DNA from: Collinsella sp.
Lineage (GTDB): Bacteria; Actinomycetota; Coriobacteriia; Coriobacteriales; Coriobacteriaceae
Assembly (NCBI GenBank): GCA_052281595.1
Contig: DAWBRY010000004.1
Span: forward strand, 67,854-131,853
Length of the DNA stretch: 64,000 nt
Reading direction: 5' to 3'
The position numbers and the translations under genes were made by a program. Positions 6,324-47,157 of this stretch are shown here, one piece after another. Each line of letters starts with the position of its first letter. The stretch's first letter is position 1. A model generated the notes under the pieces. That model made no database searches and was not told the DNA's origin. It saw nothing but the letters and a program-made list of their open reading frames with translations.

Positions 6324-6337
6324 GGAGATTGGTCTAT

Positions 6338-6751: not shown

Positions 6752-6859
6752 GGGGTTCCCGTTCGGGAACCTTACGGGCCGCCGGACCGCATCGCGGGAC
6801 GGCGGCCCTACCATTTCGGGTATAAGAGTGCCGGCTTTCACGAATTGGAGCGCATCGAT

Positions 6860-8562: not shown

Positions 8563-8772
8563 CGAATTGGCTTGCGTCGGCGTGATATTTGGCCCGGGGC
8601 CCTTTTCGGGTCCGGGGCCTTTTGCGTTCAAGGCCTCGACAGGCCTGTCGATTTCCCGTTCGGGAAAGAGGGTGCGTGGCCATGACTGTTGGCGATTTGG
8701 TCGGGTACTATCGGTCTATAGCGGTGACCGGACCAGTCCCGTGCCTTCGTTTCCAACCGAAAGGACTTCGCC

Positions 8773-9708: not shown

Positions 9709-9731
9709 GGCGCGTTTGAAAGGATACGGAC

Positions 9732-10850: not shown

Positions 10851-10966
10851 GGTTTACTTTACCGGTTGCAGCCCTTCCCATTCGGGAAGGGCTGTTTTCG
10901 TGCCGGGGTGTTGTGGGTAGCATCTTCTCTGATTCTGACCGGCTTTCGTTTTGGAGCTGATGATCT

Positions 10967-11788: not shown

Positions 11789-11818
11789 AGCGGTTTGCCT
11801 TATCTGCTTTTAATTTAA

Positions 11819-13222: not shown

Positions 13223-13348
13223 AGCTGTTTGTTCTCAATGTCGATTGATGGCAGCCCTTTCCTTTTGGGAAGGGCCGTTTTCGTTGCCGGGCAGGGCGGG
13301 TAGCATCTTCTGTGTATCTGGCTGACTTGTTTTTGGAGCTGATGGTTT

Positions 13349-14242: not shown

Positions 14243-14369
14243 CGCCTTCTTAGTTTTGCCGCGGTCAGATGGCGGCCCTTCCCGTTCGGGAAGGGCCGTT
14301 CTCGTTAATGGGCGATGCGGGTAGCATCTTCGATGTATCTGGCCGACCCTCTTTATTGGAGCTGGCGAA

Positions 14370-15590: not shown

Positions 15591-15605
15591 GCGGGAGGCA
15601 TAGCC

Positions 15606-16556: not shown

Positions 16557-16569
16557 GAAGGCGATCTGC

Positions 16570-18116: not shown

Positions 18117-18220
18117 GGTCTGGCATATGACGCCCCTTCCCGTTCGGGAAGGGGCGTTCTCGTGTGGGTCACCGGCGGGTAGCATCGATGGGGACAACCG
18201 TTTCCCTGGAGGTGCCGAAT

Positions 18221-19546
18221 ATGGCCGATATGAATGCAAGCGACAGCGCAATCTCTACCGATGACCTCGAGATCGACAGCTATGACGACGTCGTGAAGCT
18301 GCTCGGCGCCGACGATGCCGCCTCGATGCTCGCCGATGTCGCGGGCAACCGGTTCAACCGGGAGGATATCATGAGGGCCATCCTGAATGGCGAGGATATC
18401 CATCTCGATTACTGGCCCGATTACGAGGAGCTTGAGTGGGCGACTCGCGTCTGCGGCGAACTGCTCGCCGACACCTCGCTCGAATGGGCCGATGGTTTCA
18501 TCGACGCGGAGAAAATCGAGACGCACGAGGGGCTGACTGTCAGCGACCTTTCCCATGCCGTGGAATGCGTGCTGACGGATAAGTTCAACGACGGGCTCTA
18601 CGAGGCGAGCCTTGTGGACCGTACCGAAATCGCCGATACGCTCGCTCAGGAGATCAAATCGCGACTCGACGGCGGTAAGCTCGGCCATGGGCCCTATGTC
18701 GACAGCGAATCGCTGCGCGACGACCTGACCGAGCGGTTCGGGTTCTTCTACGATATCGATTTTAGCGGGCTCACCTTCAAGACCTCGCTCATACTGTCCG
18801 TCAAGAGCCTGTATTTCGAGGGTGACGTCGTCGATTCCGCGCTCGACTGGCAGGCGGATTACCTCCCGTGCGTCTGCCACAGGGGCGGCCAGGGTGAGAA
18901 CGATAGGTGGGAGTATGAGCCCACCGACGACTACAGGCCGTTCACGCGTCCCGCGGACATCCCCGAGAGCATCTTCGACAAGCTGTGCGCCTCGCAGGGC
19001 ACGACCATCGAGAAGGTCGTCAACGACCCCGTTACCAAGTTCGAGCGCAGCTTCCGCGAGGATATCTTCAACTCGCAGCAGAACTCGCTCGTCGGTCTCA
19101 CCGTCCTGGCAACCCTGCCTCTCGATGCGTTCCTGGACGCCAGCCTCTCGATGATCTGCCGCGGCGACCGCGAGAAGGCGGGAACGTTCACGGTCAAGCC
19201 CGGCACATACGAACCAATCATGGGCATCTACGACCCCATCAACGGGTGCGGCGGCACCGCGGGCATCGAACTCGACACGGACTTCGATATCGACCCGCGT
19301 GACATCAAGTACACGATGATGGAACCCAGGGGCGGGAAGTGGGAATCCGACCGCATCGATCTCTATACCCCGCAGGATTGCTTCGGGTTCTCCGAGCCCT
19401 TTGCCGGGCGTATCGAGTATTCCGAGAAGAAGCCCAAGATCGCCGCGAAGGCGAAGCCCGATCCCGCCGACCTCGGACGCCGCGCGAGTGTCGCGGCCGG
19501 TGCTACCATCCGCGACGGTGTCGATGGCGGCGGGATCAAACTGTAA
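18221..19546 (+). CDS. Array cargo protein with the conserved C-terminal tail.
   Basis: RBS GGAGGTG upstream of ATG 18221. Preceded by the intergenic cassette. The tail is …AAGATIRDGVDGGGIKL. Confidence 0.6.
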   Translation: MADMNASDSAISTDDLEIDSYDDVVKLLGADDAASMLADVAGNRFNREDIMRAILNGEDIHLDYWPDYEELEWATRVCGELLADTSLEWADGFIDAEKIETHEGLTVSDLSHAVECVLTDKFNDGLYEASLVDRTEIADTLAQEIKSRLDGGKLGHGPYVDSESLRDDLTERFGFFYDIDFSGLTFKTSLILSVKSLYFEGDVVDSALDWQADYLPCVCHRGGQGENDRWEYEPTDDYRPFTRPADIPESIFDKLCASQGTTIEKVVNDPVTKFERSFREDIFNSQQNSLVGLTVLATLPLDAFLDASLSMICRGDREKAGTFTVKPGTYEPIMGIYDPINGCGGTAGIELDTDFDIDPRDIKYTMMEPRGGKWESDRIDLYTPQDCFGFSEPFAGRIEYSEKKPKIAAKAKPDPADLGRRASVAAGATIRDGVDGGGIKL

Positions 19547-20272: not shown

Positions 20273-20367
20273 AAGGCGCCCTCGGTTTCCGAGGGCGCCT
20301 TCTTGCGTCTTTTGGGAACGGTTTCAGTTTTCATGCGTAGGGCCCGCCGGTTTCCGGCGGGGCCTGC
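20273..20367 (+). terminator. Two consecutive GC hairpins with TTTCC loops that end the array transcript.
   Basis: ggcgccctcggtttccgagggcgcc and gggcccgccggtttccggcggggcc. Confidence 0.5.
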
Positions 20368-20517: not shown

Positions 20518-21057
20518 GTGAAAAGCGTCGAGGCGATCAAGATCCTACATAGCTGCGACCTGGAGGGGCGGATTCTTTTCCGCAGCCGCGAGCTGGGAAC
20601 CCTTTTCGGTGAGTCCGGCGATACGCTCCGCTCGACCATCAAGAGGCTCGCCGCAGACGGGATCCTCGAGCGTGTCGCCCATGACGCATACCTCTACCTT
20701 CTGTTCCATCCCAACGGCTGCGATGTGCTCGGCCATATCGCGACGTTCCTGCGCCCCGGCGAGGTCACCTACGAAAGCCTCGAGTCCGCGGCATCGCAGT
20801 GGGGCTTCATCTCGCAAATCCCGCTCGGGCGCATCTCCTGCGTGACCACGGGCGCAGAAGGCCTCGTCGATACCCGATTCGGTGCCATCGAGTTTATCCA
20901 CACGGACGATGACTCGAACGACGTCAAACGGGGAATACTCGACCGTATGCCGAGGAATCGGCTGCCGATCGCGACCGAGGAGCGCTGCCTGCACGACCTC
21001 GTCTCGAGGAAACGCAGCCTGGAGCTTATCGATTGGGATGAAGTGGATGTTGATTGA
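20518..21057 (+). CDS. abiEi: AbiEi-family antitoxin / transcriptional regulator (type IV TA, abortive infection).
   Basis: N-terminal wHTH-like segment LRSTIKRLAADGILERVAHDAYLY. Overlaps and precedes an AbiEii NTase gene. Confidence 0.65.
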   Translation: MKSVEAIKILHSCDLEGRILFRSRELGTLFGESGDTLRSTIKRLAADGILERVAHDAYLYLLFHPNGCDVLGHIATFLRPGEVTYESLESAASQWGFISQIPLGRISCVTTGAEGLVDTRFGAIEFIHTDDDSNDVKRGILDRMPRNRLPIATEERCLHDLVSRKRSLELIDWDEVDVD

Positions 21058-22033
21058 CCTTGAGGAGCTTGCGGGTAATATCGCCAGCAAAGTCAATGGC
21101 GCCCGGCTTACGCCCGTCATCGAAAAGGAAATCGTCCATTACGAAATTATCCGGTCTCTTGGGAGGAACGACCTGCTTCGAGACATCACCTTTCAAGGCG
21201 GAACTTCCCTCCGCCTCTGCTACGGATCGCTTCGATATAGCGAAGACCTCGATTTCGTCGCCGGCGACAAGTTCGATTCGCTTCCCCTGGATGATTTCTC
21301 CAAGACCCTGCGCTCCGATCTGCTCAAGTCCTACGATACCGAGGTGAGCGTCAGGGAGCCCAAGGTCGTCAATGATTTCGATGGCGTCGGGATGCGGAGA
21401 TGGACGGTGTCCGTTAATACCAACATCGCGCGCCCCGATTTGCCGAAACAGCGGATCAAGCTGGAGATCGCGTCCGTTCCGGCGCATACGTCCACGATTC
21501 GCCGGGTCGCGGTCAACTATCCCGAACTTGATGGAATGTATGACAACCTCACGATCCGGTGCCAGACGCTCGAGGAGATTCTGGCCGACAAGCTCATCTC
21601 ATTCTCCGCCACCGATACGCATATCAGGCATCGCGACCTCTGGGATATCCCCTGGATCGTCCGTGCGCAGGAGATCGACTTCTCTGCCGTAGCCGCGCTT
21701 GTAGCGGCGAAGCACGCCGACTACCGCTGCCCCGCCTCCCTTGCCAGCATGATCGCCGTCGGCATGCAACGCGCTCACGTCTGCTATGCCGACGGGTCAT
21801 TTACCGGACAGATGCAGCGTTTCCTATCCCCTGCCGTCTTGAACCGCACGCACGATTTCGATAATCACTGCGATGCCCTCAATACAATCGTTGAGAAGTG
21901 CTTCGGCCGCGTCGTAACCTCCCTCGGTATCTCAAATGATGTCGAGCGTGCCAGACGCAGGCTCGCGACCGAGATATCGTTGGGTTCTATTTCGGCTGCC
22001 GTGCTACCGAAAAGGACCTTGGGGCTTTCTTAA
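21038..22033 (+). CDS. abiEii: Nucleotidyltransferase AbiEii/AbiGii-family toxin.
   Basis: Family hallmark FQGGTSLRLCYGSLRYSEDLDF. Overlaps abiEi by ~20 nt (alternative start at 21047). Confidence 0.75.
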   Translation: MKWMLIDLEELAGNIASKVNGARLTPVIEKEIVHYEIIRSLGRNDLLRDITFQGGTSLRLCYGSLRYSEDLDFVAGDKFDSLPLDDFSKTLRSDLLKSYDTEVSVREPKVVNDFDGVGMRRWTVSVNTNIARPDLPKQRIKLEIASVPAHTSTIRRVAVNYPELDGMYDNLTIRCQTLEEILADKLISFSATDTHIRHRDLWDIPWIVRAQEIDFSAVAALVAAKHADYRCPASLASMIAVGMQRAHVCYADGSFTGQMQRFLSPAVLNRTHDFDNHCDALNTIVEKCFGRVVTSLGISNDVERARRRLATEISLGSISAAVLPKRTLGLS

Positions 22034-22129
22034 GGTAACAAATTAGGGGTATGTAAAATATGCGGTTGGAAGTTGGTAAATAACTGGTTGGTCAATCGTG
22101 ATTCAGGCCATCAATGTCCAATCACGTAT

Positions 22130-22290
22130 TTTACATACCCACTTCTTCTTGGCCATCCTGAAAGCCCCTCCCCGAGAGCGTTGCGCGCAGGAAGACATCC
22201 ACCCTTGTATCTTCGCCACATATGGAGTATCTTCGCCATATCATTTATATTTGGCGAAGATACAAGGAATGTGGCGAAGATACCCCATGG
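22130..22290 (+). promoter_or_regulatory. AT-rich operator/promoter with nested inverted repeats upstream of fic.
   Basis: tgtatcttcgccacatatggagtatcttcgccatatcatttatatttggcgaagatacaaggaatgtggcgaagatacc. This contains the arms TATCTTCGCCA/TGGCGAAGATA and ATCTTCGCCACAT/ATGTGGCGAAGAT. Confidence 0.5.
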
Positions 22291-23330
22291 CTCAATTCGA
22301 CTATTCAAGGAAGCTCAGCACCCTTATGTCGCCCGAAATCATGTCGTCTATCGGCGATATGAGGGAGCACCGCGGAAGACAAGCGCTTTACGAGGCGACG
22401 AGGCCGGACGTGCTGGAAAGCCTCGTCGAGGTCGCGAAAATACAGAGCACGAGCGCGTCAAACAAAATCGAGAATATCGCGACCTCGGACAAAAGGCTTC
22501 GCGACCTGATGGCCGAGAAGGCCGAGCCGAAGAACCGAGACGAGCGCGAGATAGCCGGATACAGGTTCGTGCTCGACACGATCCACGAAAGGCACGATGC
22601 CGTACCCGTGACACCCGGCGTGATCCTGCAGCTCCATCGCGACCTGTACAGGTTCACTGGCGACTCGTTCGCAGGAAGGTGGAAGGATTCCGACAACGTG
22701 ATCGCCGAGAGGTCGGCCAGCGGGGAGATGGTCGCAAGGTTCAGGCCCACGAGCGCCGCCGCGACTCCGGCGGCGGTAGACGCCATCTGCAGGGAATACC
22801 GAGCGCAAATCGAAGCCGGAACGTACGATCCCGTCCTCGTGTCGCTGGTGTTCGTGTTCGATTTCGTGAGCATCCACCCGTTCAACGACGGGAACGGGCG
22901 CATGAGCAGGCTGCTCACCCTGCTCCTCCTATACCGATGCGGATACACGGTCGGAAAATACGTATCGATCGAAAAGGAAATCGAAAGATCGAAGGAAACG
23001 TACTATGAGGCGCTCGGCGCAAGCTCCGCCGGGTGGCAGGACGGCGAGAACGACTACACCCCGTTCGTGACCTACATGCTCGGCGTGATGACGGCCTGCT
23101 ACAAGGAGCTTGACAGGAGATTCGCCATTGCAGCGGGCCCCAAAGGCGGCGAAGGCATGCTGCGCGCATATTTCGAGCAGCTCGTCGGCGCAGCGACGAA
23201 GCGGGACATCATGGATGCGAACCCGTCCATAAGCAAGCGAACGGTCGAGCGCGTCCTCAAGAAGCTCCAAGATGACGGGACCATCGAGAAGACGGGCTCG
23301 GCGAGGTCTACCGCATATCGCAAACGCTAG
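22287..23330 (+). CDS. fic: Fic/DOC-family protein (AMPylase-type).
   Basis: Canonical Fic motif HPFNDGNGRMSRLL. The ATG at 22287 follows the operator. The upstream 189 nt of the ORF are AT-rich repeats, not coding. Confidence 0.8.
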   Translation: MAQFDYSRKLSTLMSPEIMSSIGDMREHRGRQALYEATRPDVLESLVEVAKIQSTSASNKIENIATSDKRLRDLMAEKAEPKNRDEREIAGYRFVLDTIHERHDAVPVTPGVILQLHRDLYRFTGDSFAGRWKDSDNVIAERSASGEMVARFRPTSAAATPAAVDAICREYRAQIEAGTYDPVLVSLVFVFDFVSIHPFNDGNGRMSRLLTLLLLYRCGYTVGKYVSIEKEIERSKETYYEALGASSAGWQDGENDYTPFVTYMLGVMTACYKELDRRFAIAAGPKGGEGMLRAYFEQLVGAATKRDIMDANPSISKRTVERVLKKLQDDGTIEKTGSARSTAYRKR

Positions 23331-29632: not shown

Positions 29633-31693
29633 CTATCTCCTCCTCGTATGGTTTGTCGGTGTGTAGCCGTCGTCCCCGCTATCGTCGCGGGACGGTGCGT
29701 ATGCCCGCGCGTCCCTCGCGTTGCCCTTGTCCCTCTTCTCGAGCTCGAGCTCCTTGGCCTTCGGGTGCGAGTTCAGCAGCGCGTTGACGTCAGCGATTGT
29801 CGGTTCGCCGCCGAGGCTGTCGACGTCGGCCTGCGCGACGACGCCGGACTCCACGAGGTCTTCAAGGTATTTCATCTGCCTCTCGGTCGCCGGTCGCTGT
29901 AGATACGGCTCCCATCCGGGTTTCGCCTTCGTGACGTCCCCGTCTGGCACTGCAACAGTCACGGGGGCGTCCTGCGCCCATTCGCTTCCGGCCATGCCGT
30001 ACGCCGAGCGGGCGGCGCGCAAGTCCTCCTCGCGCTGCTCGCTTACGATCTTCGCCTTGGCGCGCTCGTGGTCGCGCTCGATCTGCTTGATCCTGTCCGG
30101 CGTCAGCGCGCCGGCAGCGATCGCCTGCGAATAGGCCTCCCTGTAGCGGACGTATTCGCGCGTCAGCTCGGCGCTCTGGTCGGCGGTGATGACCTTAGCG
30201 CCGCGCACGTTGCGCCCGGCGCCCTTCTGCCTCTCGCCGCGCCCGCGGACATCGGTGGGGCCGATCGGCATCTGCGAGGAAGCCAGGACATCGACCGCGG
30301 CGGAAAGGCGGCGCGAGCGGTTGCGGATGTCGCCCGCAGTGGAAGCGAGGTTAGCGGCGTCGGCCTTGACGCCCTCGCGGCGCGCGAGGAGGTCGGTATA
30401 GGTCGTATCGGTGAGCCCGATGCCGCGCTCGGCCATCCACTTGCGGATCGCCTCCATCTCGCGGAGCTCCACGGCGTTGTCCTCGCGCCATGCCGCCAGG
30501 ACGCCCGGGTCGGTCGGGCGGGCGGTCAGCTGCGCGGCGCAGGCCGTGTAGACCTCGACTTGGCGGATCGCCTCGGCGGTCTGCTCGGCCTCCAGCTTGA
30601 GCGCGTCAGCCCTCGCGTCGAGCGCGTCGACCTCGGCGGCAAGGCGCTTCGCGTCCGCCGCCATGTCCGCGTAGCATCGGTAGCCGCGCTCACGGATGAT
30701 GTTCACCGCGTCGGCGGCGGCAGCGAGGCGCGCGGCGGAGCGCTCGATCCTCTTCGACCGCTCGAGGTTGTTTGACGCCACCGCCTCGAACGTCATGGGC
30801 GGCAGGACGACGTCGGGGACTAGGTCCTCGGCGCACATCCTGACGTTCGGGCGCCGTCCTTCCAGTCGCACGGCAAGGCGCTCGCGCAACCCTTCGACCG
30901 TATAGGAGTCGTCCAGCTTGTATCCCTTTACGGGACGCCCTTTGCCCTCGGGCGGGTAGAACGTCAGCACGCCGCGGCGGTTGATGTTGATTCGGTATCC
31001 CTTTTCCGTCAGGCGCCTCTCGAGCGCGGGCCATGTCCGGCAGCCCTGAAGGGCAGCCTCGATATCGTCGTGCATCGCGTCGGTCCAGAGTCTCCTGCCG
31101 CTGTACCGGGCGCGGCGCTGGGCGTCCGTCTGATGCCTGCGCGGCGGTCGCGCCTCCTGCAATACGACCTCGCGCCGACGGTCGGGGCGCGGCGTTCTCG
31201 CGTACCAGGAACCGTCCTCGTCCCTCGAGAACTTGAAATTGTCGAAGGCGGCGTAGCCGTAGTCGCGGCAGATGCGCTGGAGCTCCATCGCGTCGGCCTG
31301 CACGTCATCGTCGTCGAGGTGGATCTTCCTGCCGTCGACGGGGTTGACGGAGTTGACGACGACGTGGGCATGCGGGATGCCGTTGTCGACGTGCGTCTCG
31401 ATCACCCACTGGTAGCCGCCGTAGCGCTCCCTCACCCAATCGTATGCCAATGTGTCGACCGCCTTGGCATCCAATCCGTCCTCGGGGTCGGGTGAGATCA
31501 CGAAATGGTAGTACTTGCGGCCCGTGTCCTTCTCGAACATCTGGCGCGTCGCGTCCATCTGCTCGTCCCAATCGGCGCTATCGAGATCGATCGAGCTCGA
31601 GCGGAACGTCATGGCACGGCCGTTGCGCGCAAGGTAGTCCTTGATCTGCCTACAGCCGCCGAACTTCCGGGCGAGCGTCTTGAGCATCGCCAT
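29633..31693 (-). CDS. MOB-family relaxase (MobA/VirD2-like nickase N-domain) with a long C-terminal extension.
   Basis: KYYHFVISPDPED… and GIPHAHVVVNSVNPVDGRKIH (relaxase histidine triad region). 686 aa. Start overlaps the mobC stop. Confidence 0.8.
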   Translation of the reverse strand: MAMLKTLARKFGGCRQIKDYLARNGRAMTFRSSSIDLDSADWDEQMDATRQMFEKDTGRKYYHFVISPDPEDGLDAKAVDTLAYDWVRERYGGYQWVIETHVDNGIPHAHVVVNSVNPVDGRKIHLDDDDVQADAMELQRICRDYGYAAFDNFKFSRDEDGSWYARTPRPDRRREVVLQEARPPRRHQTDAQRRARYSGRRLWTDAMHDDIEAALQGCRTWPALERRLTEKGYRININRRGVLTFYPPEGKGRPVKGYKLDDSYTVEGLRERLAVRLEGRRPNVRMCAEDLVPDVVLPPMTFEAVASNNLERSKRIERSAARLAAAADAVNIIRERGYRCYADMAADAKRLAAEVDALDARADALKLEAEQTAEAIRQVEVYTACAAQLTARPTDPGVLAAWREDNAVELREMEAIRKWMAERGIGLTDTTYTDLLARREGVKADAANLASTAGDIRNRSRRLSAAVDVLASSQMPIGPTDVRGRGERQKGAGRNVRGAKVITADQSAELTREYVRYREAYSQAIAAGALTPDRIKQIERDHERAKAKIVSEQREEDLRAARSAYGMAGSEWAQDAPVTVAVPDGDVTKAKPGWEPYLQRPATERQMKYLEDLVESGVVAQADVDSLGGEPTIADVNALLNSHPKAKELELEKRDKGNARDARAYAPSRDDSGDDGYTPTNHTRRR

Positions 31694-31694
31694 G

Positions 31695-32276
31695 CTAGCG
31701 CTCGACCTCCGATTGCTTCCTGAGCTGCACCATGAGGCCGCGCGTCTCCGCGAGCGCCTTGCAGTACGGGTCCTTCAGCGTCGCGACGAAGTTCTCGATC
31801 TGCTCAACGAGTTCGCGGCGGCGCTCGTGGCTCACGTCCGGCATGTCCTGTAAGAGCAGCAGCGTGTTCGCCGCGGCGGCGAGCTGGTTCAGGTTCACGC
31901 CCTGCTTGTTGAGTTCGTAGAAATACTTCTGGAAGAAATCGGGGTCGCCGATGTAGTACATGGGCGTGTGGAGTATTCGGTCGACCATGAAGCGCGACTG
32001 CGTCATGCCGGCTTTCCGCGCGCCCGTGCGTATAAAGGTGTCCTCGTAGGGCGTCACGTTGAAATGCTTCTGCACCGTGCGGTGCTCGGTATCGAGCAGC
32101 CCCTCCAGTGCCTCCTTCACGTCCACGCGCTCGCCGCCGGGCAGCTTCGCCAGCGTGAATTCATGCTTGCCGTAGACCGCCGTCTCGCGGATGAAGTTTG
32201 TCACGGTCGTGCCCGCAAGACGTGCCTTCGCCTTGAGCGCGCCGATCTCCTCCTCGGTCAACCTGATGCTGACCAT
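31695..32276 (-). CDS. mobC: MobC-like ribbon-helix-helix relaxosome accessory protein.
   Basis: MVSIRLTEEEIGALKAKARLAGTTVTNFIRETAV. The RHH fold sits immediately upstream of the relaxase. The longer ORF to 32453 is a GC-rich extension. Confidence 0.6.
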   Translation of the reverse strand: MVSIRLTEEEIGALKAKARLAGTTVTNFIRETAVYGKHEFTLAKLPGGERVDVKEALEGLLDTEHRTVQKHFNVTPYEDTFIRTGARKAGMTQSRFMVDRILHTPMYYIGDPDFFQKYFYELNKQGVNLNQLAAAANTLLLLQDMPDVSHERRRELVEQIENFVATLKDPYCKALAETRGLMVQLRKQSEVER

Positions 32277-32436
32277 CCTCGTCTGTGAGGTGGCTTCCTT
32301 TGCCACGCTTCCTCCAATTCCTCGCGCACCCGTGCGCGACCCCGGTCCAAGGGCGGAGCCCTGGCAAGCGCCGAAGGCGGGCGGGTTTCCGTCGGCGGGC
32401 CGTGCCCGGTGGCGGAAATCTGACCGACTCCGGCGG

Positions 32437-32475
32437 CATAGTTGTACATACATCTACGATGGAGGTACAACTATG
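32437..32475. other. Candidate oriT: 11-bp perfect inverted repeat in an AT-rich patch upstream of mobC.
   Basis: CATAGTTGTAC-atacatctacgatggag-GTACAACTATG, about 160 nt 5' of mobC in a locally low-GC region. Confidence 0.4.
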
Positions 32476-32688
32476 CGTCTCTTGCGAAGTTTTCAGTATC
32501 CTACCCCTATTTGCCTGGGTTTAAACCGCTTTACACCGGTCGTTATGTGCCGAAATGTTGCCGGCGTTTATGCCGTCGGTTGTCGCGTTTGAGTTGGAAG
32601 TGATGCCGTTCAGCAGTTGCATGCCCGATCGGACTTGGATACCGTCACGTCTGTATAGGTTGCTTTCTGCGATGAGAAGGAGGGTCAT

Positions 32689-32856
32689 ATGGATGCCGAC
32701 GATTGCGCCCGTATCGTCGAGGGGGTGGCCGCCGTGCTCGACCTGCTCGCGGCCGGAGGCGATGCCGTGGACGACCCGGCGCCGATCTACGAGCTGCTTG
32801 CGGAGCGATGCCGCCATGTCCGGGTGGCGCTCGAGGTCATGACGGGCTGCGAGTAG
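32689..32856 (+). CDS. Small (55-aa) hypothetical protein with a strong RBS. Not in the ORF track because it is shorter than 60 aa.
   Basis: gagaaggagggtcat-ATG…MDADDCARIVEGVAAVLDLLAAGGDAVDDPAPIYELLAERCRHVRVALEVMTGCE*. Confidence 0.4.
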   Translation: MDADDCARIVEGVAAVLDLLAAGGDAVDDPAPIYELLAERCRHVRVALEVMTGCE

Positions 32857-33085
32857 CGGGTGCGTGTGTTTTGGGTTCGCGGCGCGGCGACGAGTGCCGT
32901 GGGGCTGACCAATCCGGGCATCGGGTCGCGGCGGGCAACCGTTTGGCCGTGTCCGGCGCGAGCGTTTCCGCTCGCCTCACACCGTGCCGCCGCGGCGGTT
33001 CCGATATATGCGGGCGTGACATGAAAATGGCCGCCACCGTGTTCCGGTGGCGGCCATCCTGGCGCGTCTTCGCGTGTTGTCGGCT

Positions 33086-33451
33086 TTACGCCTTCTTGTC
33101 CGCAAGGCGTTCGTAGTCGTCGCTCGAGAGCACGACGGCATACACGGCGCCGTCCTTCATCAGGTACGCCATGCCGTTGCGCTCGATGCGGCTCTCGATC
33201 TCGGCCTGTGGGTCGCTGACGCTGCCGAGGTCGACGCTGGACTCCATCAGGCGTCGGATATCGTCCATCGTCAAGTTCTGCATCTGCTCGGTGAACGCTT
33301 GGCGCTTCTGGCGGGCGCGGCGCTTCTCGCGCTTCTCGGCCTCGGCCGTCTTCTTGGCGGCATCGGCTGCGCTGTCCGCAGACGATGCCTTCGGCGACTC
33401 GGTCTCGGTCGGCTCGGTGTCGCGCAGGGTGTCGCTGTCGGTGTCGAACAT
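33086..33451 (-). CDS. Hypothetical protein. Disordered acidic/basic N-terminus plus a small C-terminal domain (…DGAVYAVVLSSDDYERLADKKA).
   Basis: RBS GGGGAGGAG before ATG 33451. The long ORF 33086..34558 is a GC artefact upstream of this start. Confidence 0.5.
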   Translation of the reverse strand: MFDTDSDTLRDTEPTETESPKASSADSAADAAKKTAEAEKREKRRARQKRQAFTEQMQNLTMDDIRRLMESSVDLGSVSDPQAEIESRIERNGMAYLMKDGAVYAVVLSSDDYERLADKKA

Positions 33452-33633
33452 GTTCTCCTCCCCTCTTATCACGTTTCCGGCATTACCTTTCGATGCTACC
33501 CAAAAACGACCGGGCTCATACGCCGCCCGCCGTCTCCGGCGGTACGCAAACTTGCGAGGCGTTTGTGCCGCCGGTCTCGCCATGTGAGCGGAAAAGGATC
33601 CCCGCCATCGGTTTCCGATGGCGGGGATCTCGG

Positions 33634-35454
33634 CTACTTGAAGCCGCGGCGTTGCGAGCCGGCGGTCTTCATGTGGCATCCGGCATGCCCTATGACTATC
33701 AGCTCGTTTTCCCGATCGATGTAGAAGTGAAGGCGGAAGGTATTCTTCTGGCTCCTCCCCTTGATGTGGGCGGAGATGTCGACGGTTCGGCCGCCGTAGT
33801 TCCTCTCGCGCATCTTCATCAGATCGGCGCGCGCCCTGGTGGCGCTGCTCTCGCTGAAGGTGAGCTCGTAACCCGTACGGCGCTGGAACTCGTCTGCGAC
33901 CCGGCCCTCGCAATCGTCGTCCTCGAACAGGAGTCCGTAGAGCGCCGTCGCTGCCCCGCGGACGATATCCCACTCCTCGGCGAGGTTGCCGTCGTATGAT
34001 TTGGCCGAGTCCATCGCCTCGGGAAGGACGACGATGCGGTCGGGCCAGATGGAGCGCGCGAGCTTCAGGAGGTCCGCCAGGTCGCGCGGGATCGCCTGGA
34101 GGCATTCGGCCACCCTCGCGGCCCCGTCGTCGTGCGACGGCGCCGCGCACTGCGCCGCCTTGCGCTCGAGCGCGCGCTTCTCGCCTTCGAGGCGCTGGAC
34201 GGTCCTCGTGAGCTCGTCCACCTTTGCCGTGGCGTCGGAATAGCTCCGCTCCTGGTCCGTCGCGATCTCCTCCCATGCCTCGGCGTCGGATCGCAGGCGC
34301 GCGATCTCCGCGCGCAGGCCGTCGATGTCGGCTACCGGCTCGGCGAGCGCCTTCGTCCGCGCACGCAGGCGCTCGATTCGCTCGCCCTGTCGCTCGCTCT
34401 CCGCGCGGCTGCGCAGCCACAGCACGTCGCCAATCCCGGCGACGTCGCCCGGTCGGCTGTCGATGCCGCGACCGAGGCCCTGCATGAGGACGTTGATGAA
34501 ACCGTCGCGGCCGCCGGCGGCATAGCGCTCGACCCTGTGGCGCGTGAAGAGCGTGCACGCGGACAGCGAGTCCTCGGTCGACAGGTCAATTCCCGGGCGG
34601 TACACCATCACGGCGCTGCGCCCGATCCTGTAGCGCCCGGCCGGTGTCCGGTCGGGCAGCAGGTCGCGGAACGCCTGCACCAATGCGCCGTCGCGCATGT
34701 CGATGACGTATACCGTAGCCATGCCGACGAGCTTCGATGCGAGCTCGGTGGCGTCCCACACAGGTGTCTTACCGTCGTCGTCGGTCGTCATAAGGACGAT
34801 CGGCAGGCAGCGCGCGCGATCGGTCAGGCTCGGCATGAAATCGCGCTTTAGCGTGTCCGCGTCAAGGTATATCTCCTCGACGCTCACGCGCGACGCGCCG
34901 ATCCTCACGTCTAGCTTTCCGCTCGCGAGGATATCGCGCACGACGCGCGGCACGGACGGCAGCGGGTTGCGCTGGTATCCGAAAAAGCCGTTCACGGCGT
35001 AATGCGATACCTGCACGTTGAGGATGCACCCGCCGTCTCCGGCGGGTGCGAGGCCGATCCTCGTGTGCCAGCGGCGGCGCGAGAACTCGCCGTCGAGCTC
35101 ATCGGCCTCGACCGCCCATGCCGCGCCTTGCGCGCCGGATAGGCCGAGAAAGCGGACGGCCTTGGCGGCGTCGGGCTCGTCGGCGGCCGTCCAGCCCGCG
35201 GGCACCGCGATGTCCGCGGCGCCCTCCGGTACGTCCAGGCCCTTGGCGTGCAGCCAGCCCATGACGATCTCCTTCACGGCCTCGGCCGCGTCCGCGCCGT
35301 CGGCCGCTGCGACCTCGAAGCGCGCGCGGTAGTGCGGTGTCTCTCCCGATATGGTCCTCAGTACGGGAGCCAGGGCGGGAGACGCGGGGCGCTGGACTGG
35401 GACGGCGGCAGGTTCGGGCAGCTGTGCGGCCTGCACTCCCCGGCCCCTCAGCAC
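33634..35454 (-). CDS. Large hypothetical protein (~600 aa) with a central coiled coil. Its C-terminus has a RelE/ParE-like signature.
   Basis: The C-terminus …KNTFRLHFYIDRENELIVIGHAGCHMKT fits the RelE/ParE pattern (yRl.Y.id.e…i.Il.igHR). The exact start is uncertain. Confidence 0.45.
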   Translation of the reverse strand: MLRGRGVQAAQLPEPAAVPVQRPASPALAPVLRTISGETPHYRARFEVAAADGADAAEAVKEIVMGWLHAKGLDVPEGAADIAVPAGWTAADEPDAAKAVRFLGLSGAQGAAWAVEADELDGEFSRRRWHTRIGLAPAGDGGCILNVQVSHYAVNGFFGYQRNPLPSVPRVVRDILASGKLDVRIGASRVSVEEIYLDADTLKRDFMPSLTDRARCLPIVLMTTDDDGKTPVWDATELASKLVGMATVYVIDMRDGALVQAFRDLLPDRTPAGRYRIGRSAVMVYRPGIDLSTEDSLSACTLFTRHRVERYAAGGRDGFINVLMQGLGRGIDSRPGDVAGIGDVLWLRSRAESERQGERIERLRARTKALAEPVADIDGLRAEIARLRSDAEAWEEIATDQERSYSDATAKVDELTRTVQRLEGEKRALERKAAQCAAPSHDDGAARVAECLQAIPRDLADLLKLARSIWPDRIVVLPEAMDSAKSYDGNLAEEWDIVRGAATALYGLLFEDDDCEGRVADEFQRRTGYELTFSESSATRARADLMKMRERNYGGRTVDISAHIKGRSQKNTFRLHFYIDRENELIVIGHAGCHMKTAGSQRRGFK

Positions 35455-35457
35455 CCT

Positions 35458-36087
35458 TCAAATGGCCTCCTTGAACGGGGCCTCCATAACGTCGTAGACG
35501 GTATCGGGCGACGTCACCTTCGCGACCTGCTCCAGGGCGCGCATCATGTCGTTCGCGTCGCCCTCGTTGCGGAATACCATCACCGGGACCGTCCCCAGAT
35601 CGCCCGTGCACATGAGCGTGTAGCACTTGGCCGGCTCCGTCTCCGGAGCCTTTGTCCCCGCGGCCGCCGTCTTCTGCCCGTCCGTTTTCGATACCTTCTG
35701 CATTTCTGTCTCTTCCTTCCCCGTATCCTGTGACTGTCGCGCGGCATCGGCCTCCGATGCCGCCTTTCGCGCCTGGCGCCTCTTCGCCTTCCTGTCGCGG
35801 CGTTCCATCGCACGGCGCTCCTCGCGGTTTAACGGGCGCCTCGCAGTCCCCATACCGTCATCGATGCTGCCCTCGCAGGCTTCCCTGGCCCCATCCTCAG
35901 CGAGGTCGAGGCCTTCCGCCTCCACCCACGAATCGAACTTCGCGACCGCCTCGCCTTGCGTACAGCGGTACGTTCTGATCATGAACTTGGCGTTGGGCAT
36001 ACGGACATGCCCCTCATAGCAGCTGTCCTCCAGCTTCCACAGCCCGGCGCGGTAGCGGTCGCCCTTTATCAGCTTACGAGTCGACAT
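35458..36087 (-). CDS. Hypothetical protein.
   Basis: 209-aa ORF with a basic middle and a globular C-terminus. Confidence 0.45.
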   Translation of the reverse strand: MSTRKLIKGDRYRAGLWKLEDSCYEGHVRMPNAKFMIRTYRCTQGEAVAKFDSWVEAEGLDLAEDGAREACEGSIDDGMGTARRPLNREERRAMERRDRKAKRRQARKAASEADAARQSQDTGKEETEMQKVSKTDGQKTAAAGTKAPETEPAKCYTLMCTGDLGTVPVMVFRNEGDANDMMRALEQVAKVTSPDTVYDVMEAPFKEAI

Positions 36088-36640
36088 GGATCGCCCCTTT
36101 CATCACCGGAGCGCCATGTCCTGCGGCGACCATGGGGGCGCCGCAGGACGGGCAACGCGTGCACACCGATACGGTCACGCGTGCGCCGCATCGCCCGCAG
36201 GTGTAGGAATACAGGGCGCGGTCTCCGCGCTCCGTGCGCTCCGGGGACGCCATCAGCGAGACCGGGGCAATCAGGTCGGCCAGGCGCATCGCCGCGATTT
36301 GGTAGGAAGATCGATCCGACCACCCCTTGATATCCAGGGCAGCGAGGATGCGGGCGGTGAAGCTGTCGGCATCCAGCGTGTCGGTGGCGCGCGCCTGGCG
36401 GCGGAGGCCGGCGAGACAGCCTAGCTCGCCGCACGTCATCCCGTCGGCGTCCGGCATCGCCTCGCGGGCCGCCGCGAGCCTCACAACCGCGTGCAAGCAG
36501 CCCAGATAGCCCAGACGCCCGGCGACGTCCACGGCATCGCACACCTCCTCGGCGAAACCCGCACAGTCCATGTGGTGGACGCGGGCCGCGACGGCCTGGA
36601 GTCGCAGGGCGGTGCGGACGCGCCCGGCATCGGCATCCAT
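36074..36640 (-). CDS. Hypothetical protein with a C-terminal zinc ribbon.
   Basis: …YTCGRCGARVTVSVCTRCPSCGAPMV (CxxC…CxxC). Confidence 0.45.
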   Translation of the reverse strand: MDADAGRVRTALRLQAVAARVHHMDCAGFAEEVCDAVDVAGRLGYLGCLHAVVRLAAAREAMPDADGMTCGELGCLAGLRRQARATDTLDADSFTARILAALDIKGWSDRSSYQIAAMRLADLIAPVSLMASPERTERGDRALYSYTCGRCGARVTVSVCTRCPSCGAPMVAAGHGAPVMKGAIHVDS

Positions 36641-36756
36641 CTAGGCCTCCTTCTTGCCGAGATCCGCGATATAGGGCGCGACGCGGTAGCCCTGGGCGCT
36701 GTACTCGAATGCTGTCATTTCCGTTTTCCCTTCTATTCGATGGTGTTCCGACCGGC

Positions 36757-37056
36757 CTAGCGGTCCTTGCGCAGATGCTCCTCGAGCAGCGAGCGCATGA
36801 GGTCGCTCGCACTGCGGTAGCCCTCGCGGCGGTGCTCCACCAGGTACTCCTTGAGCTGCCAGTAGAGGTCGTCGGGGACGATCACGCTCAGGCGGTGCGT
36901 CGGACCCTCAGAGGCCGCCGCCTTTTTCTCAGCTGCCGGCTCGGGGTCGGGGTTCACGACCTTCTCGACGATCGTCTCCTGGCGCTCGACCATCTCCTTG
37001 GAGGTGTCCGTGAAAAAGCTGTTGATGGCGGAGTCCGCCTTCTTAGTCCTCGCCAT
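36757..37056 (-). CDS. ParG/CopG-like ribbon-helix-helix partition adaptor.
   Basis: 99 aa. The C-terminus THRLSVIVPDDLYWQLKEYLVEHRREGYRSASDLMRSLLEEHL is an RHH. Its start overlaps the parA stop (TAATG). Confidence 0.55.
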   Translation of the reverse strand: MARTKKADSAINSFFTDTSKEMVERQETIVEKVVNPDPEPAAEKKAAASEGPTHRLSVIVPDDLYWQLKEYLVEHRREGYRSASDLMRSLLEEHLRKDR

Positions 37057-37604
37057 TACAGCATCGCCTCCACCTTGTCCAGAATCCCCTCGATCGCGTC
37101 CGCCGCGCGGCCGCCCGGCTGCACCTCGGACACCGGTCGGTTGAACGACGCGCCGCGCTTGAACGCCTCGGCGGTCGGCACGCAGCCCAGGATGGGCAGG
37201 TCGTCGGCGGTGAGGAAGTCGGTAAAGCTGCGGTCGATGATTCGCTTGTCGGAATAGCGGTTCACGATCAGGCCGATCTCGAGCTCGGGGTTGACGCCTG
37301 TGATGAGCTGGATCGTGCGCTTCATCGCGCGAAGGCCGCGCTGGCTGGGCTCGACGGGGACGATCGCGATGTCGGCGACCTCCACGCAGCCGCCGAGCTT
37401 GTCGTTCAGATAGCCCGGGGTGTCGACGACGGTGACGGCCTTCTCGCCCTCGACGGTCTTCTGCTCGTGACTCGCGCCGCCCTGCGGGTCGAGGTTGATG
37501 AAGCCGACCTCGCGCCCGCGGCGCTCGAGGCCCCAGGCGATCTCGTCGGCGAACGTCGTCTTGCCGACGCCGCCCTTTTGGTTGACCAAAACGATTGTCT
37601 TCAT
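37056..37604 (-). CDS. parA: ParA-type partition ATPase (small Walker-type).
   Basis: Deviant Walker A LVNQKGGVGKTT. 182 aa. Confidence 0.8.
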   Translation of the reverse strand: MKTIVLVNQKGGVGKTTFADEIAWGLERRGREVGFINLDPQGGASHEQKTVEGEKAVTVVDTPGYLNDKLGGCVEVADIAIVPVEPSQRGLRAMKRTIQLITGVNPELEIGLIVNRYSDKRIIDRSFTDFLTADDLPILGCVPTAEAFKRGASFNRPVSEVQPGGRAADAIEGILDKVEAML

Positions 37605-37734
37605 GTGTTTCCCTTCTACGGGTGCCGCCCGATTTCCGGGCGGCCCTCTCGGATATCTGCCGCCTGCCGGCGGCGGGCACGGGGCCGGCGAGTCGCTACC
37701 GGTCCCGCATCCGCCGACGGCAGGGCGCTAGGGC

Positions 37735-37825
37735 CCTGCCGCTGCCATATATGTACCCAGTTATGCGGATGCGTAAACGCACATCTGCATACCTGTGCGG
37801 ATGCGCGTTTACTTATTCTTGCCCG
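37735..37825. repeat. ATGCG/TGTGCG-rich promoter-proximal repeat, copy 1, 5' of parA.
   Basis: tatgtacccagttatgcggatgcgtaaacgcacatctgcatacctgtgcggatgcgcgtttac. Core IR TGCGT-AA-ACGCA. Confidence 0.6.
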
Positions 37826-37834
37826 CCGGCGCCG

Positions 37835-38107
37835 CTATGCGCCGTATTCCGACGCCCTCGCGGCGCGATACGCGCGGCGCGTTTCGACCTTGCGGCAGCA
37901 CTCCTTCCGTGCCGCCACCGTCCTCTCCGCCACGTCGTAGGCGTACGCGATGAGCGCGCCCGCCACCGGGAACACGGCGCAGTTGATGTAGACATAGCTG
38001 TATGCGAGCATGAACCACATCCCGACGAGCCCCGCGACCAGCGCGGCGGCGGCGGCGACCTTCTCCCTTCCGCTCGGCTCCATTACTTCCCTCTTGCAAC
38101 CGGCCAT
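37835..38107 (-). CDS. Small membrane protein.
   Basis: RBS GGAAGGAGG before ATG 38107. Hydrophobic AAAALVAGLVGMWFMLAYSYVYINCAVFPVAGALIAYAY. The upstream part of ORF 37835..38341 is repeat sequence. Confidence 0.4.
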   Translation of the reverse strand: MAGCKREVMEPSGREKVAAAAALVAGLVGMWFMLAYSYVYINCAVFPVAGALIAYAYDVAERTVAARKECCRKVETRRAYRAARASEYGA

Positions 38108-38159
38108 GACGGCCTCCTTCCGATATTCGGCGATCCCGCGCCGACGCGGTCGCGGCCTC

Positions 38160-38370
38160 CCTTGCCGCTGGTATGTATGTACCCAGCTGCGCACATGCGT
38201 AAACGCACAAGCACGTAAATGCGCACGTATGCGTCTGCGTAATTCGATAATTTGCCCAGCGGGCCGCCCGGACACCGGTCGGCAGGCCCCTGGCCTGCGA
38301 TTTCCATGGCCGGATGACCGGCGGGACCCCATCCGTCCCATAGGCAGCCGGGTGTGGGAAACGTGTGGAG
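38160..38370. repeat. Composite repeat, copy 2: the ATGCG-rich repeat (38160-38262) plus a conserved ~70-nt block (38293-38365), then a terminator hairpin.
   Basis: The 70-nt block (ttccatggccggatgaccggcgggaccccatccgtcccataggcagccgggtgtgggaaacgtgtgg) is ~92% identical to 39010-39075. It is followed by ccccgccgtctccggtggggc. Confidence 0.6.
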
Positions 38371-38443
38371 ACGGGCTACGGCATGAAAAAGCCCCGCCGT
38401 CTCCGGTGGGGCGATCACTTGAGTATGGGGTTGTACGGGTCGG

Positions 38444-38869
38444 CTAGAACGGGATGTCCTCGTCCGCAACCTCGACGGCGGGAGCCTCGGGGACCGCATA
38501 CTGCTGTCCACCATCAACCGCGGCAGCAGGAGACGCGGCAGGGCGGGAGTTCATGAACTCGATCTCGTCGACGATGACCTCGAGCTTGCTGCGCTTCTGG
38601 CCGTCGCGCTCCCAGGAGCTATAGCGCAGCTTGCCCTCGATCGCGACCTTGCTCCCCTTGGAGATATAGCGGCCGACAGCCTCGGCGCGGGTGCCGAACA
38701 TGGTACAGTCGATGTAATTGGGATAGTCCTCCCACTCGCCGGTCTGCGGGTTCTTTCGGCGATCGTTGACGGCGATGCCGAACGAGAGCACCTGGGTGCC
38801 GGCCGCGGTGACGCGGAGCTCGGGATCGCGGGTGAGGTTTCCGGTGATGTTGACTCGGTTGATGCTCAT
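38444..38869 (-). CDS. ssb: Single-stranded DNA-binding protein.
   Basis: MSINRVNITGNLTRDPELR…OB fold, Gly/Pro/Ala linker and C-terminal acidic tip …DEDIPF. Confidence 0.9.
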   Translation of the reverse strand: MSINRVNITGNLTRDPELRVTAAGTQVLSFGIAVNDRRKNPQTGEWEDYPNYIDCTMFGTRAEAVGRYISKGSKVAIEGKLRYSSWERDGQKRSKLEVIVDEIEFMNSRPAASPAAAVDGGQQYAVPEAPAVEVADEDIPF

Positions 38870-45954: not shown

Positions 45955-47157
45955 ATGTCCGACCCGATCGCCGCGGCCGAAGCCGCCGGCAAAGCCCGCG
46001 ATATCGCCAACCGCTTCGAGACCGCCGTATTCCTCATCGCATACGGCATCGCCGAGAAGGACGGCCTCTACGAGGCCGACCCGCATAGGTATCCCTACAG
46101 CCAGGCATTCAGACACGGCATGAATATCCTCGCCGCGCTGTGCGCTGAGTGTTCCGACGATGCGGAAGAGCTGCTGCCGACGTTCAATGAGTCCGATTTC
46201 ATCAGGAACAGCGCAGCGTCAGACGTGCGCGAGTGGACGGCCCGGTGGCGCGACGAGTGCAGGGAAGCCGTCGAAGGGTGCCGGTCCATCGAGATCGGGC
46301 CCCTGGCGTCAGTAGACGGCGACTACTTCGCCGCGACGTCGGAATGCTACGAGGTGCTGCGCTTTGCGGAAAACGACCTCTTGGGCGGCCATCAGGAACG
46401 CAGGGTGTATGAATTCCTCCGAGCCGGCACCCAGGAGCAATACGTGTACGGACGCAGGATGCTCATCCGCCACCCGCTGCTCACCTGGAACGAATACGTC
46501 AGGATCAAGACGGGGCTCGCCCTGGGCGACCCCGACCCCCTCGACCAGGGCGAAGCCGACACCATCGACCCGGTGTGGTTGCAGGAATTCGTCTCCATGG
46601 CCTACGAACCCGTCCCGGGCGCCGCAAAAGTATGCCCGAATTGCGGCTGGACGATGACCATGCGAGGCAAGCAGCCCCACTGCTCATCGGCGACGTGCGC
46701 CAAGGCCGTCACAGGCGATTTCGACAAGCTGGACAGCGTCGCGCACGACGCCTTCCGCCTATCCCGCGGCGTCATGCACTACATCTCTTCCCCCGGAAAG
46801 CTCGAGCTGGCGATCGCCGAGGCCGCAGCGGGCCTCGGTCTGAAATACGAAATGTGGCCCCTCAAGGACACCTGCGACATCCTGATCCATCTGCCGGACG
46901 GCCGGCAGCTTGCCGTCGACGCCAAGGCATACGGCCGCGCCGAGCGGCTTGCCCGCGAGATAGAGGACGACACCGGCATCGCCCAGATGTGCGCGGACGA
47001 GGTGGCCTATGTCGTGCCGGACCAAGTCGAACGGGACCATCCCGGATATCGCGCGCTATGCAATGCCGTCCTGCGCGGCAAGACCGGCTATTCATGCGAA
47101 ACGCTGCGCAACTTCTCGAAACGACTCGATGCCGCCGCGAAGGGAGGCACGCGATGA
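45955..47157 (+). CDS. PD-(D/E)xK restriction-endonuclease-fold protein with an internal Zn ribbon. First gene of the candidate defence operon.
   Basis: RBS AAAGAGGTGG before ATG 45955. CPNCGWTMTMRGKQPHCSSATC (Zn ribbon). C-terminal …DILIHLPDGRQLAVDAKAY fits PD…D-x-K. Confidence 0.55.
   Translation: MSDPIAAAEAAGKARDIANRFETAVFLIAYGIAEKDGLYEADPHRYPYSQAFRHGMNILAALCAECSDDAEELLPTFNESDFIRNSAASDVREWTARWRDECREAVEGCRSIEIGPLASVDGDYFAATSECYEVLRFAENDLLGGHQERRVYEFLRAGTQEQYVYGRRMLIRHPLLTWNEYVRIKTGLALGDPDPLDQGEADTIDPVWLQEFVSMAYEPVPGAAKVCPNCGWTMTMRGKQPHCSSATCAKAVTGDFDKLDSVAHDAFRLSRGVMHYISSPGKLELAIAEAAAGLGLKYEMWPLKDTCDILIHLPDGRQLAVDAKAYGRAERLAREIEDDTGIAQMCADEVAYVVPDQVERDHPGYRALCNAVLRGKTGYSCETLRNFSKRLDAAAKGGTR

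Follow-up and report, generated by a model that had tools for sequence, protein, structure and literature searches.

A 64,000-nucleotide stretch of a Collinsella sp. contig (DAWBRY010000004.1), referred to here as the window, carries an inverted repeat at 32436–32476 just upstream of genes for a relaxosome accessory protein and a relaxase. Judged from sequence, and with a probability of about 0.8, this repeat is the large recognition hairpin of an origin of transfer (oriT) of the R64 type (IncI1, NikA/NikB) that serves the adjacent genes. The original prediction of an oriT at this place is supported by the position of the repeat beside the mob operon, by compensatory changes between its arms, by the replacement of the hairpin with unrelated hairpins in other lineages, by a strand-specific box, and by a layout shared with R64. 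The element is of an ordinary kind, with an R64/RP4-style oriT, and belongs to an uncharacterised Coriobacteriia lineage that has its own nick box.

The repeat had been described as an 11-bp perfect inverted repeat with a 17-nt spacer at 32437–32475, and we verified both coordinates and sequence: CATAGTTGTAC (32437–32447) and GTACAACTATG (32465–32475) are perfect complements. The 11-bp core stands, but the full extent of the repeat is larger. Perfect arms reach 12 bp (GCATAGTTGTAC and GTACAACTATGC at 32436–32447 and 32465–32476), and a repeat finder returned 19-nt arms with two mismatches (17/19 paired) around a 3-nt loop (Table 1). Dinucleotide shuffles of the whole window contained 1.36 ± 1.5 perfect inverted repeats of at least 11 bp with a spacer of at most 30 nt, and such a repeat appeared in 0.2% of dinucleotide shuffles of the 412-bp intergenic region (P about 0.002). 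A chance origin of the repeat is excluded. The remaining repeats of this class in the window are mostly GC-rich, short-looped and terminator-like. Folding of the + strand as single-stranded DNA (ssDNA) into the repeat hairpin gives −15.0 kcal/mol (z = −3.4), a stability matched by 0 of 200 shuffles. The repeat does lie in an AT-rich patch, as proposed, with 38.5% GC compared with about 64% for the window, 49% for 32437–32688 and 71% for 32277–32436. The proposed distance of about 160 bp to the gene originally called mobC also holds when the gene is started at the ATG of MVSIRL (32276, 160 nt from 32436); one gene caller places the start 30 nt upstream of this ATG. A 252-aa open reading frame (ORF) that begins at an ATG in the loop (32453) was rejected as coding on the grounds of a 1-nt indel in three loci (L002, L003 and L005), the divergence of the same loci just upstream of MVSIRL, and the later starts chosen by gene callers.

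The repeat was compared across more than 60 related loci in total. Within the close family, more than 55 loci of three genera, metagenome loci included, yielded 22 distinct repeat variants. An alignment of 12 upstream regions revealed a compensatory swap, CATAGTTGTAC...GTACAACTATG versus CATACTTGTAC...GTACAAGTATG, and an invariant block to the right of the repeat. When the 22 variants are laid on a 17-pair hairpin, 98.1% of cells are paired, and three pairs have changed on both sides: G:C to C:G (13 versus 9 variants), A:T to T:A, and T:A to C:G. Controls in which the partner was slid pair in 23–45% of cells. The covariation score was reached by 0 of 500 shuffles, a count that overstates significance because close-family sequences are related. 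The compensatory swaps themselves are unambiguous.

Beyond the close family we examined, with their flanks, relaxase relatives about 30–57% identical to the window protein over the N-terminal domain. Thirteen other lineages carry an unrelated hairpin at the equivalent place upstream of a NikA-like gene and a relaxase gene, and the linkage of the site to these genes holds in 14 lineages across unrelated genomic contexts. The predicted ssDNA fold shows the lineage hairpin in 11 of the 13 (12 of 14 counting the window), with z-scores for the 11 that range from +0.2 to −7.4, nine of them at or below −2.6. The 3′ ends of the hairpins read ...(A/G)T(G/A)C directly before G(T/C)C(T/A)CTTGCG in 12 of 14 lineages, again counting the window. 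The hairpin always abuts the conserved box, so that it has the place and form that had been expected of a relaxase hairpin with an adjacent nic, and a nic site can be predicted. One locus listed at 57% relaxase identity (L087, 2190–2262) is actually a close relative; the single-base insertions in its box and repeat (ttcgcaaAgagacgc...) are probably long-read assembly errors.

The box that the repeat abuts is a strand-specific 10-mer. A profile of the close-family core located a 13-mer in the distant loci, which reads CGCAAGAGACGCA in the mob orientation and TGCGTCTCTTGCG on the + strand of the window. Allowing one mismatch, about one chance match would be expected in the 1.75 Mb searched; the 13-mer was found in dozens of loci and is present in every lineage with intact upstream DNA. 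With a single exception the matches lie upstream of a NikA-like gene; without exception they are on one strand, the one opposite the mob genes. Across 14 lineages, positions G1, C3, C5, T6, T7, G8 and C9 of the box are invariant, T2, T4 and G10 are kept in 12, and conservation ends after position 10; the box itself is kept down to about 30% relaxase identity. A C-tract in the 3′ flank is semi-conserved (about 10 of 14 lineages). In the window the 13-mer is present exactly once, and therefore no conserved oriT copy was found elsewhere, for example downstream of the relaxase. A repeat that varies and is always paired, next to a box that is invariant and one-sided, points to a relaxase recognition hairpin with its nic region.

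In R388, RSF1010 and RP4, the proximal arm is followed by nic at a distance of 8 nt on the 3′ side, and the cuts (slash) fall at TATTGTCT/AT, TAAGTGCG/CC and CTATCCTG/CC, respectively (PMC4814116). Applying this 8-nt offset, we predict a nick on the + strand at GTCTCTTG/CG, between 32484 and 32485, a geometry that would fit the order repeat, 8 nt, nic. The sequence ATCCTA at 32498–32503 was rejected as an RP4-like nic, as it lies 27 nt from the hairpin and is lost in distant lineages. Short nic resemblances of this sort carry little weight, because the consensus YATCCTGY has 180 one-mismatch matches in the window. A literature search with the 12-nt box cores (GCGTCTCTTGCG and its complement) returned only unrelated primer matches.

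Two further sites recall the box. At 20273–20316, CTTGCGTCTTTTGGG, a two-mismatch match to the 13-mer, comes after a GC-rich hairpin (AAGGCGCCCTCGG-ttt-CCGAGGGCGCCTT), and L008 and L031 have the same feature. Because two-mismatch box matches occur at the chance rate, a terminator is the probable reading. In Megasphaera-type relatives (L025, about 5570–5660; L107–L122, about 2570–2660), whose relaxase N-terminus is about 30% identical, there is, about 385 nt upstream of the relaxase start, a hairpin that has GCAAGTTC / GGAACTTGC on either side and a C-tract after it. The 13-mer was not found in the Firmicutes and Megasphaera-type relatives. The CTTGC core of the Megasphaera group recalls the nick box, which suggests a wider oriT superfamily and makes this hairpin a possible distant cousin of the oriT described here.

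The predicted mobC–relaxase operon was recovered as a gene for a NikA-like protein followed by one for a PF03432 relaxase. The accessory protein scores 77 bits against PF21983 (cutoff 27), with weak matches to MobC and to ribbon–helix–helix (RHH) families, and its residues 65–116 align by BLASTP with residues 14–65 of R64 NikA (27% identity over 52 residues, E = 3e-5). The relaxase scores 83.8 bits against PF03432 (gathering threshold 24.6). Residues Y20 and H101-x-D103...H108-A-H110 are invariant in 69 sequences, and would fit the catalytic tyrosine and the metal site. A profile comparison of the relaxase with R64 NikB (hhalign) gave a probability of 89.5% and E = 2e-6, spanning the HxDxxxHxH motif, with 23% identity over 95 aligned columns. 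By these matches, the accessory protein and the relaxase are remote homologues of NikA and NikB. Sequence searches of the PDB with the single relaxase protein found no match and a profile search returned only coiled-coil noise, so the fold search alone was informative: the closest folds to a structure model of residues 1–300 (mean predicted local distance difference test score 81) are MobA of R1162 (2NS6, E = 5e-5, TM 0.56 on the target) and NES (4HT4). MobA and NES themselves bind a substrate composed of a hairpin plus a single strand. Both are placed in MOBQ, and HUH relaxases generally use such hairpin-plus-single-strand substrates (PMC4814116).

A second conserved element, box 2, lies between the large repeat and the mob genes (Table 1). 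In the mob orientation it reads CTTG(G/C)CAGGGCTCCGCCC(A/T)TG(C/G)ACCGGGG, and the core of its small GC hairpin is GGGCGGAGCCCTG at 32351–32363. Box 2 is conserved in 11 lineages, with covarying outer pairs (GCA with TGC, CCA with TGG, CAA with TTG, and CTA with TAG). We propose that its hairpin is the counterpart of the 8-bp inverted repeat of the R64 oriT. In lineages L013 and L037 the sequence GGGCGAAGCCCTG is identical to that of R64, and L038 equals R64 at 19 of 23 positions. The segment that separates box 2 from the large repeat is, in other lineages, absent or variable (about 25 to 115 nt), and its imperfect palindrome was rejected as a conserved hairpin, the substitutions in A2 being non-compensatory by inspection. 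On the other side of box 2, the palindrome at 32322–32339 has arms that are invariant in 12 loci and a spacer base that varies; it sits in the 71% GC non-coding stretch and could serve the RHH protein as an operator. The hexamer TTGGCA occurs within box 2, with no −10 element after it. No Rfam family reached its gathering threshold anywhere in the window.

Read 5′ to 3′ on the + strand, the proposed oriT would consist of the small GC hairpin (32340–32368), a spacer, the large AT-rich hairpin (32436–32476), and GTCTCTTG/CG. We hypothesize that the NikA-like RHH protein binds the double-stranded oriT and assists its melting, and that the relaxase binds the base of the proximal arm (...ATGC) together with the single-stranded box. 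The relaxase would cut the + strand about 8 nt from the arm (32484/32485) and become linked to the 5′ end, Y20 being the candidate residue. With the + strand nicked, this strand would exit 5′ to 3′, so that the right side (the small ORF, genes of unknown function, ParA, and SSB, a protein that binds single-stranded DNA) would be the first part to enter and the mob genes would be the last, as in R64 and RP4. In the transferred strand the hairpins would then re-form and guide rejoining, as in R64 and R1162. In those two systems the whole repeat is needed for termination (PMC5863519), and by analogy the inner arm may serve initiation and the full repeats termination in the window oriT.

Several findings weigh against an R64-type oriT. 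The predicted GTCTCTTG/C agrees only partly with the MOBP core ATCCTG/Y (T.TC.TG/C), and the MOBQ nic consensus TAAGTGCGCCCT (PMC3832669, PMC10333310) has no match in 32277–32688 with up to three mismatches and fewer matches than chance window-wide. With each of the curated NCBIfam subfamilies tested (TraI_MobP, MobP1, Bacteroides MobB and SAG1250) the relaxase stays far short of the cutoff, scoring 48 versus 250 bits for TraI_MobP and 19.5 versus 200, 22.5 versus 400 and 31.7 versus 575 bits for the others. A hidden Markov model of box 2 run against R64 plus 293 kb of unrelated DNA ranked the R64 site second with E = 2.5, and the likeness of box 2 to R64 therefore counts only with position and context. 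The hairpins of L038 and L015 are no more stable than shuffles, and that of L101 is ambiguous. The RHH β-strand VSIRLT is unchanged across repeat variants, with only a partial G12/S12 association. Domains of a type IV secretion system (T4SS) or coupling protein (VirB4, VirD4, FtsK) were not found in a Pfam scan of 48 window ORFs, as the original prediction had already remarked of T4SS genes. Finally, a dyad-symmetric protein-binding site would likewise show covariation.

The last point bears on a reading in which the repeat is only a dyad operator, perhaps overlapping a promoter, through which an RHH or other repressor controls the mob operon and the divergent gene. The repeat does lie between divergent genes, its dyad symmetry would explain the paired changes, and TTGTAC-N18-TACAAC is loosely −35/−10-like on both strands. 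RHH accessory proteins also often autoregulate, as does MobC of RA3 (PMC4175270). However, a strict scan of 32100–33100 for sigma-70 promoters and terminators gave no matches, and an operator leaves unexplained both the R64 oriT layout and the one-sided box, which stays invariant while the palindrome is replaced among proteins that are 30–45% identical. The constancy of the RHH β-strand between repeat variants also tells against an operator. The two roles are compatible, given that the RA3 oriT and mobC operator share one region, and an operator and nothing else strikes us as quite improbable. We find it only slightly easier to credit an oriT that is nicked within box 2, on the + strand at GAGCCCTG/GCAAG (CCTG/CCA in most lineages), with the large repeat as a site for the accessory protein. 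The conservation of box 2 is as deep as that of the nick box, the sequence resembles the T-DNA border TGGCAGG, and the 5′ part of its − strand, GTCTTGGC (CTCTCTTGCA in L042 and L096), looks like the nick box in inverted form. Moreover, CCTG/C is the nic core of RP4 (CCTG/CCC; PMC4814116), although this is the kind of short resemblance to which the abundance of YATCCTGY matches gives little weight. A cut in box 2 would fall within the stem of the small hairpin and at a variable 25–115 nt from the large repeat, compared with the 8 nt of R388, RSF1010 and RP4, and the small hairpin of R64 itself reads GAAGCCCTG/AC, yet Furuya and Komano are said to have placed the R64 nick at the other end, after the 17-bp repeat, following CATCCTG and 8 nt from the repeat.

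We give very little credence to the view that a single-strand origin, a priming signal (sso/ssi) or some other replication element of the host replicon forms the hairpin and merely happens to lie beside the mob genes. The hairpin is a long one in ssDNA, and the window does hold a replication module with an HTH_36 initiator-like gene, an IstB-like gene and two SSB genes; yet the site is constantly linked to NikA-like and relaxase genes in unrelated contexts, it has no DNA-level relative in phage or plasmid collections, its layout is that of the R64 oriT, and a separate iteron-like candidate origin is present at 62.3 kb. That candidate lies at 62294–62434, where a 25-bp palindrome, CCGTGTACCAATTTTTGGTACACGG, occurs twice, 60 bp apart (62344–62368 and 62404–62428), with a half-site at 62310–62320. 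The palindromes are inside an ORF on the − strand (61541–62953) with an N-terminal HTH_36 domain, which adjoins the IstB-like gene (60487–61518), and the region is a candidate iteron-type replication origin within an initiator gene, as in lambda O. The second SSB gene is at 63514–63876.

Table 1. Features of the proposed oriT region and its surroundings (window coordinates).
Feature	Position	Strand	Remarks
Large AT-rich imperfect palindrome, proposed oriT recognition hairpin	32436..32476	+	Distal arm 32436–32454, loop 32455–32457, proximal arm 32458–32476
Nick box GTCTCTTGCG	32477..32486	+	Abuts the repeat; predicted nic between G32484 and C32485, 8 nt from the proximal arm
3′ flank of nick box, contains TATCCTACCCC (32497–32507)	32487..32545	+	Near-invariant in the close family
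GC-rich spacer, imperfect palindrome (32-nt arms, 75% complementary)	32369..32435		Conserved only in the close family
Box 2 CCCCGGTCCAAGGGCGGAGCCCTGGCAAG with small GC hairpin, stem 32347–32354 / 32358–32364	32340..32368	+	On the mob-gene side of the large repeat
8-bp perfect palindrome TCGCGCAC-cc-GTGCGCGA	32322..32339		Precedes the accessory gene by about 45 nt
Relaxosome accessory protein, 193 aa: N-terminal RHH-like segment and NikA-like domain	31695..32276	-	PF21983
Relaxase, 686 aa, MobA/VirD2-type HUH nuclease domain	29633..31693	-	PF03432
Divergent 55-aa ORF, strong ribosome-binding site, first gene on the predicted leading side	32689..32856	+	No Pfam match
Predicted leading region, including ParA (37056–37604) and SSB (38444–38869)	33086..38869	-	All genes on the - strand

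The start region of the divergent 55-aa ORF is conserved in most loci. Because the genes of the predicted leading region lie on the − strand, the predicted T strand would be their template. Leading regions are known to be enriched in SSB genes and to follow a gene-orientation rule (PMC11541004), and the gene orientation and SSB observed here are consistent with that pattern but circumstantial. Three family-less ORFs on this side (33634–35454, 35458–36087 and 36074–36640) are anti-defence candidates. A VirB4-type ATPase together with a coupling protein, the combination that marks a conjugative element, was not found within the window, and the element may extend further. The window has no recognisable gene for a mating pore or a coupling protein, so transfer probably relies on a T4SS that is encoded elsewhere, and mobilisation in trans, as first suggested, is plausible from the gene content. 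A 2026 preprint describes a widespread 44–48 kb putative conjugative plasmid in E. lenta (PMC13060105), which could provide a helper pore. It is less likely that the island uses an unrecognised apparatus within its roughly 20 kb of unannotatable genes. Two distant relaxase relatives (L040, 9383–9701; L041, 7807–8401) lie near giant SNF2/ResIII helicase genes (1898 and 2253 aa) that recall the 2211-aa helicase carried as cargo by the E. lenta plasmid (PMC13060105).

The relaxase has hundreds of metagenomic relatives, one of them named as Eggerthellaceae. On one-genome-per-species contigs it is 87–100% identical in Collinsella aerofaciens, other Collinsella, Eggerthella sp. AM16-19, Gordonibacter sp. 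28C and G. pamelaeae, and the oriT core is identical in Collinsella, Eggerthella and Gordonibacter, three genera of two families. This identity of relaxase and core across genera indicates recent horizontal spread. The element is most likely chromosomal, because contigs of its relatives reach 372 kb. Searches of PLSDB plasmids and INPHARED phages, made with the mob region and with each half of the window, found only a short ParA match to Collinsella plasmids, and a phage origin is unlikely because IMG/VR holds no relative of the relaxase.

Pfam domains in the window comprise AbiEii, Fic, HNH (called from the precomputed Pfam table of the matching contig), GT2, ParA, two SSBs, pPIWI_RE_Z, a PIF1 helicase, and the IstB-like and HTH_36 initiator-like proteins. 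Defence-type cargo includes the AbiEii toxin (20882–22033), Fic (22098–23330), and a 1233-aa pPIWI_RE_Z protein (46575–50276), and AbiEii and Fic recur beside distant relaxase relatives. From 775 to 19546 on the + strand, about 15 co-oriented ORFs of 140–540 aa with high GC at third codon positions encode soluble-looking proteins whose N-termini are acidic by eye. Several of these N-termini look paralogous (YELDRW..., YELGSNVLDWYRDF..., FKSSIRDWYIRAF...). This 0.8–19.5 kb block has no Walker A motif, a single predicted transmembrane segment (in a 194-aa ORF), and no Pfam match; ten of its ORFs had no match in PHROGs and four had none in NCBIfam.

Genetic manipulation is difficult in Eggerthella, Gordonibacter and Collinsella, bacteria that are common in the gut and metabolise both drugs and polyphenols. 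An oriT of about 150 bp (32340–32486), with the two mob genes, could make shuttle vectors mobilisable into and between these genera. Its unchanged core in three genera marks an element that is now moving defence genes (AbiE, Fic and pPIWI-RE) through the gut community, and the conserved boxes could be used as a search signature for orphan oriTs in Coriobacteriia genomes. The two-hairpin layout and the sequence of one hairpin are common to a Gram-negative IncI1 plasmid and to high-GC Gram-positive elements, which suggests for this oriT design a far greater age and a stronger constraint than for the nick sequence. We raise only tentatively the more ambitious idea that the hairpin, GYCWCTTGCG and the GGGCGRAGCCCTG mini-hairpin together define an undescribed, Coriobacteriia-wide oriT/relaxase lineage, a deep sister of IncI1 NikAB with changed nick specificity, carried on a T4SS-less island of >60 kb that would move among gut genera through borrowed pores of conjugative elements sharing its host, the E. 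lenta plasmid being one candidate helper.

Comparison with the oriTs of known MOB families, which the original prediction had recommended, recovers the layout of R64 but neither its nick sequence nor the MOBQ consensus, and the MOBP core only in part. Because the accessory protein is NikA-like, we read the R64 oriT from its record (NC_005014), where the order is nikB, nikA, GTCGGGGCGAAGCCCTGAC, a 17-bp repeat (GCAATTGTAATA...TATTACAATTGC), ACATCCTG, TCCCG and a divergent gene. Gene order and strands are the same in R64/ColIb-P9 (IncI1, MOBP) and the window. In both, the relaxase and accessory genes lie to the left on the opposite strand, followed by a small GC hairpin, a large AT-rich repeat (GCA...TGC), 8 nt, the (in the window, predicted) nick, and the divergent gene. 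The small hairpin follows GGGCG(A/G)AGCCCTG (GGGCGAAGCCCTG in R64, GGGCGGAGCCCTG in the window), and the R64 repeat GCAATTGTAATA...TATTACAATTGC stands in place of GCATAGTTGTAC...GTACAACTATGC. The proteins correspond as well, through the NikA-type RHH domain and the remote homology of the relaxase to NikB. The systems differ in the 8 nt after the repeat (ACATCCTG/T in R64, GTCTCTTG/C in the window), such that the nick regions CATCCTG/T and TCTCTTG/C are identical at 4 of the 8 nt before the cut. The gap between hairpins is 8 nt in R64 and about 70 nt in the window, and the small hairpin is about 17 nt from the accessory start in R64 compared with about 65 nt. Unlike NikA, the window accessory protein is longer and has an extra N-terminal RHH-like segment. 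Furthermore, the window is without a nearby I-type T4SS, and its host belongs to a different phylum (Gram-positive Coriobacteriia, about 64% GC).

Other transfer systems were compared as well. RP4/RK2 (TraJ/TraI) and the Ti T-DNA borders (VirD2) share the PF03432 nuclease with its HxDx4HxH-type motif and an oriT between divergent operons, and their repeat 5′ of nic at 8-nt spacing, cut after TG/C and transfer of relaxase genes last agree with what is predicted for the window; the core ATCCTG is not kept (5 of the last 7 positions match) and the accessory proteins differ. The MOBQ oriTs (RSF1010/R1162 MobA; pLW1043/pSK41 NES) supply the nearest solved folds and have the succession predicted here of a hairpin, about 8 nt of single strand and nic, but their consensus TAAGTGCGCCCT is absent from the intergenic region and their proteins have no sequence-level match. 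RA3 has its own T4SS, unlike the window, and here the likeness is one of layout: RA3 (IncU) and PromA plasmids likewise have a bicistronic operon of RHH accessory protein and relaxase, with the oriT in its upstream region and the accessory protein as autorepressor (PMC4175270).

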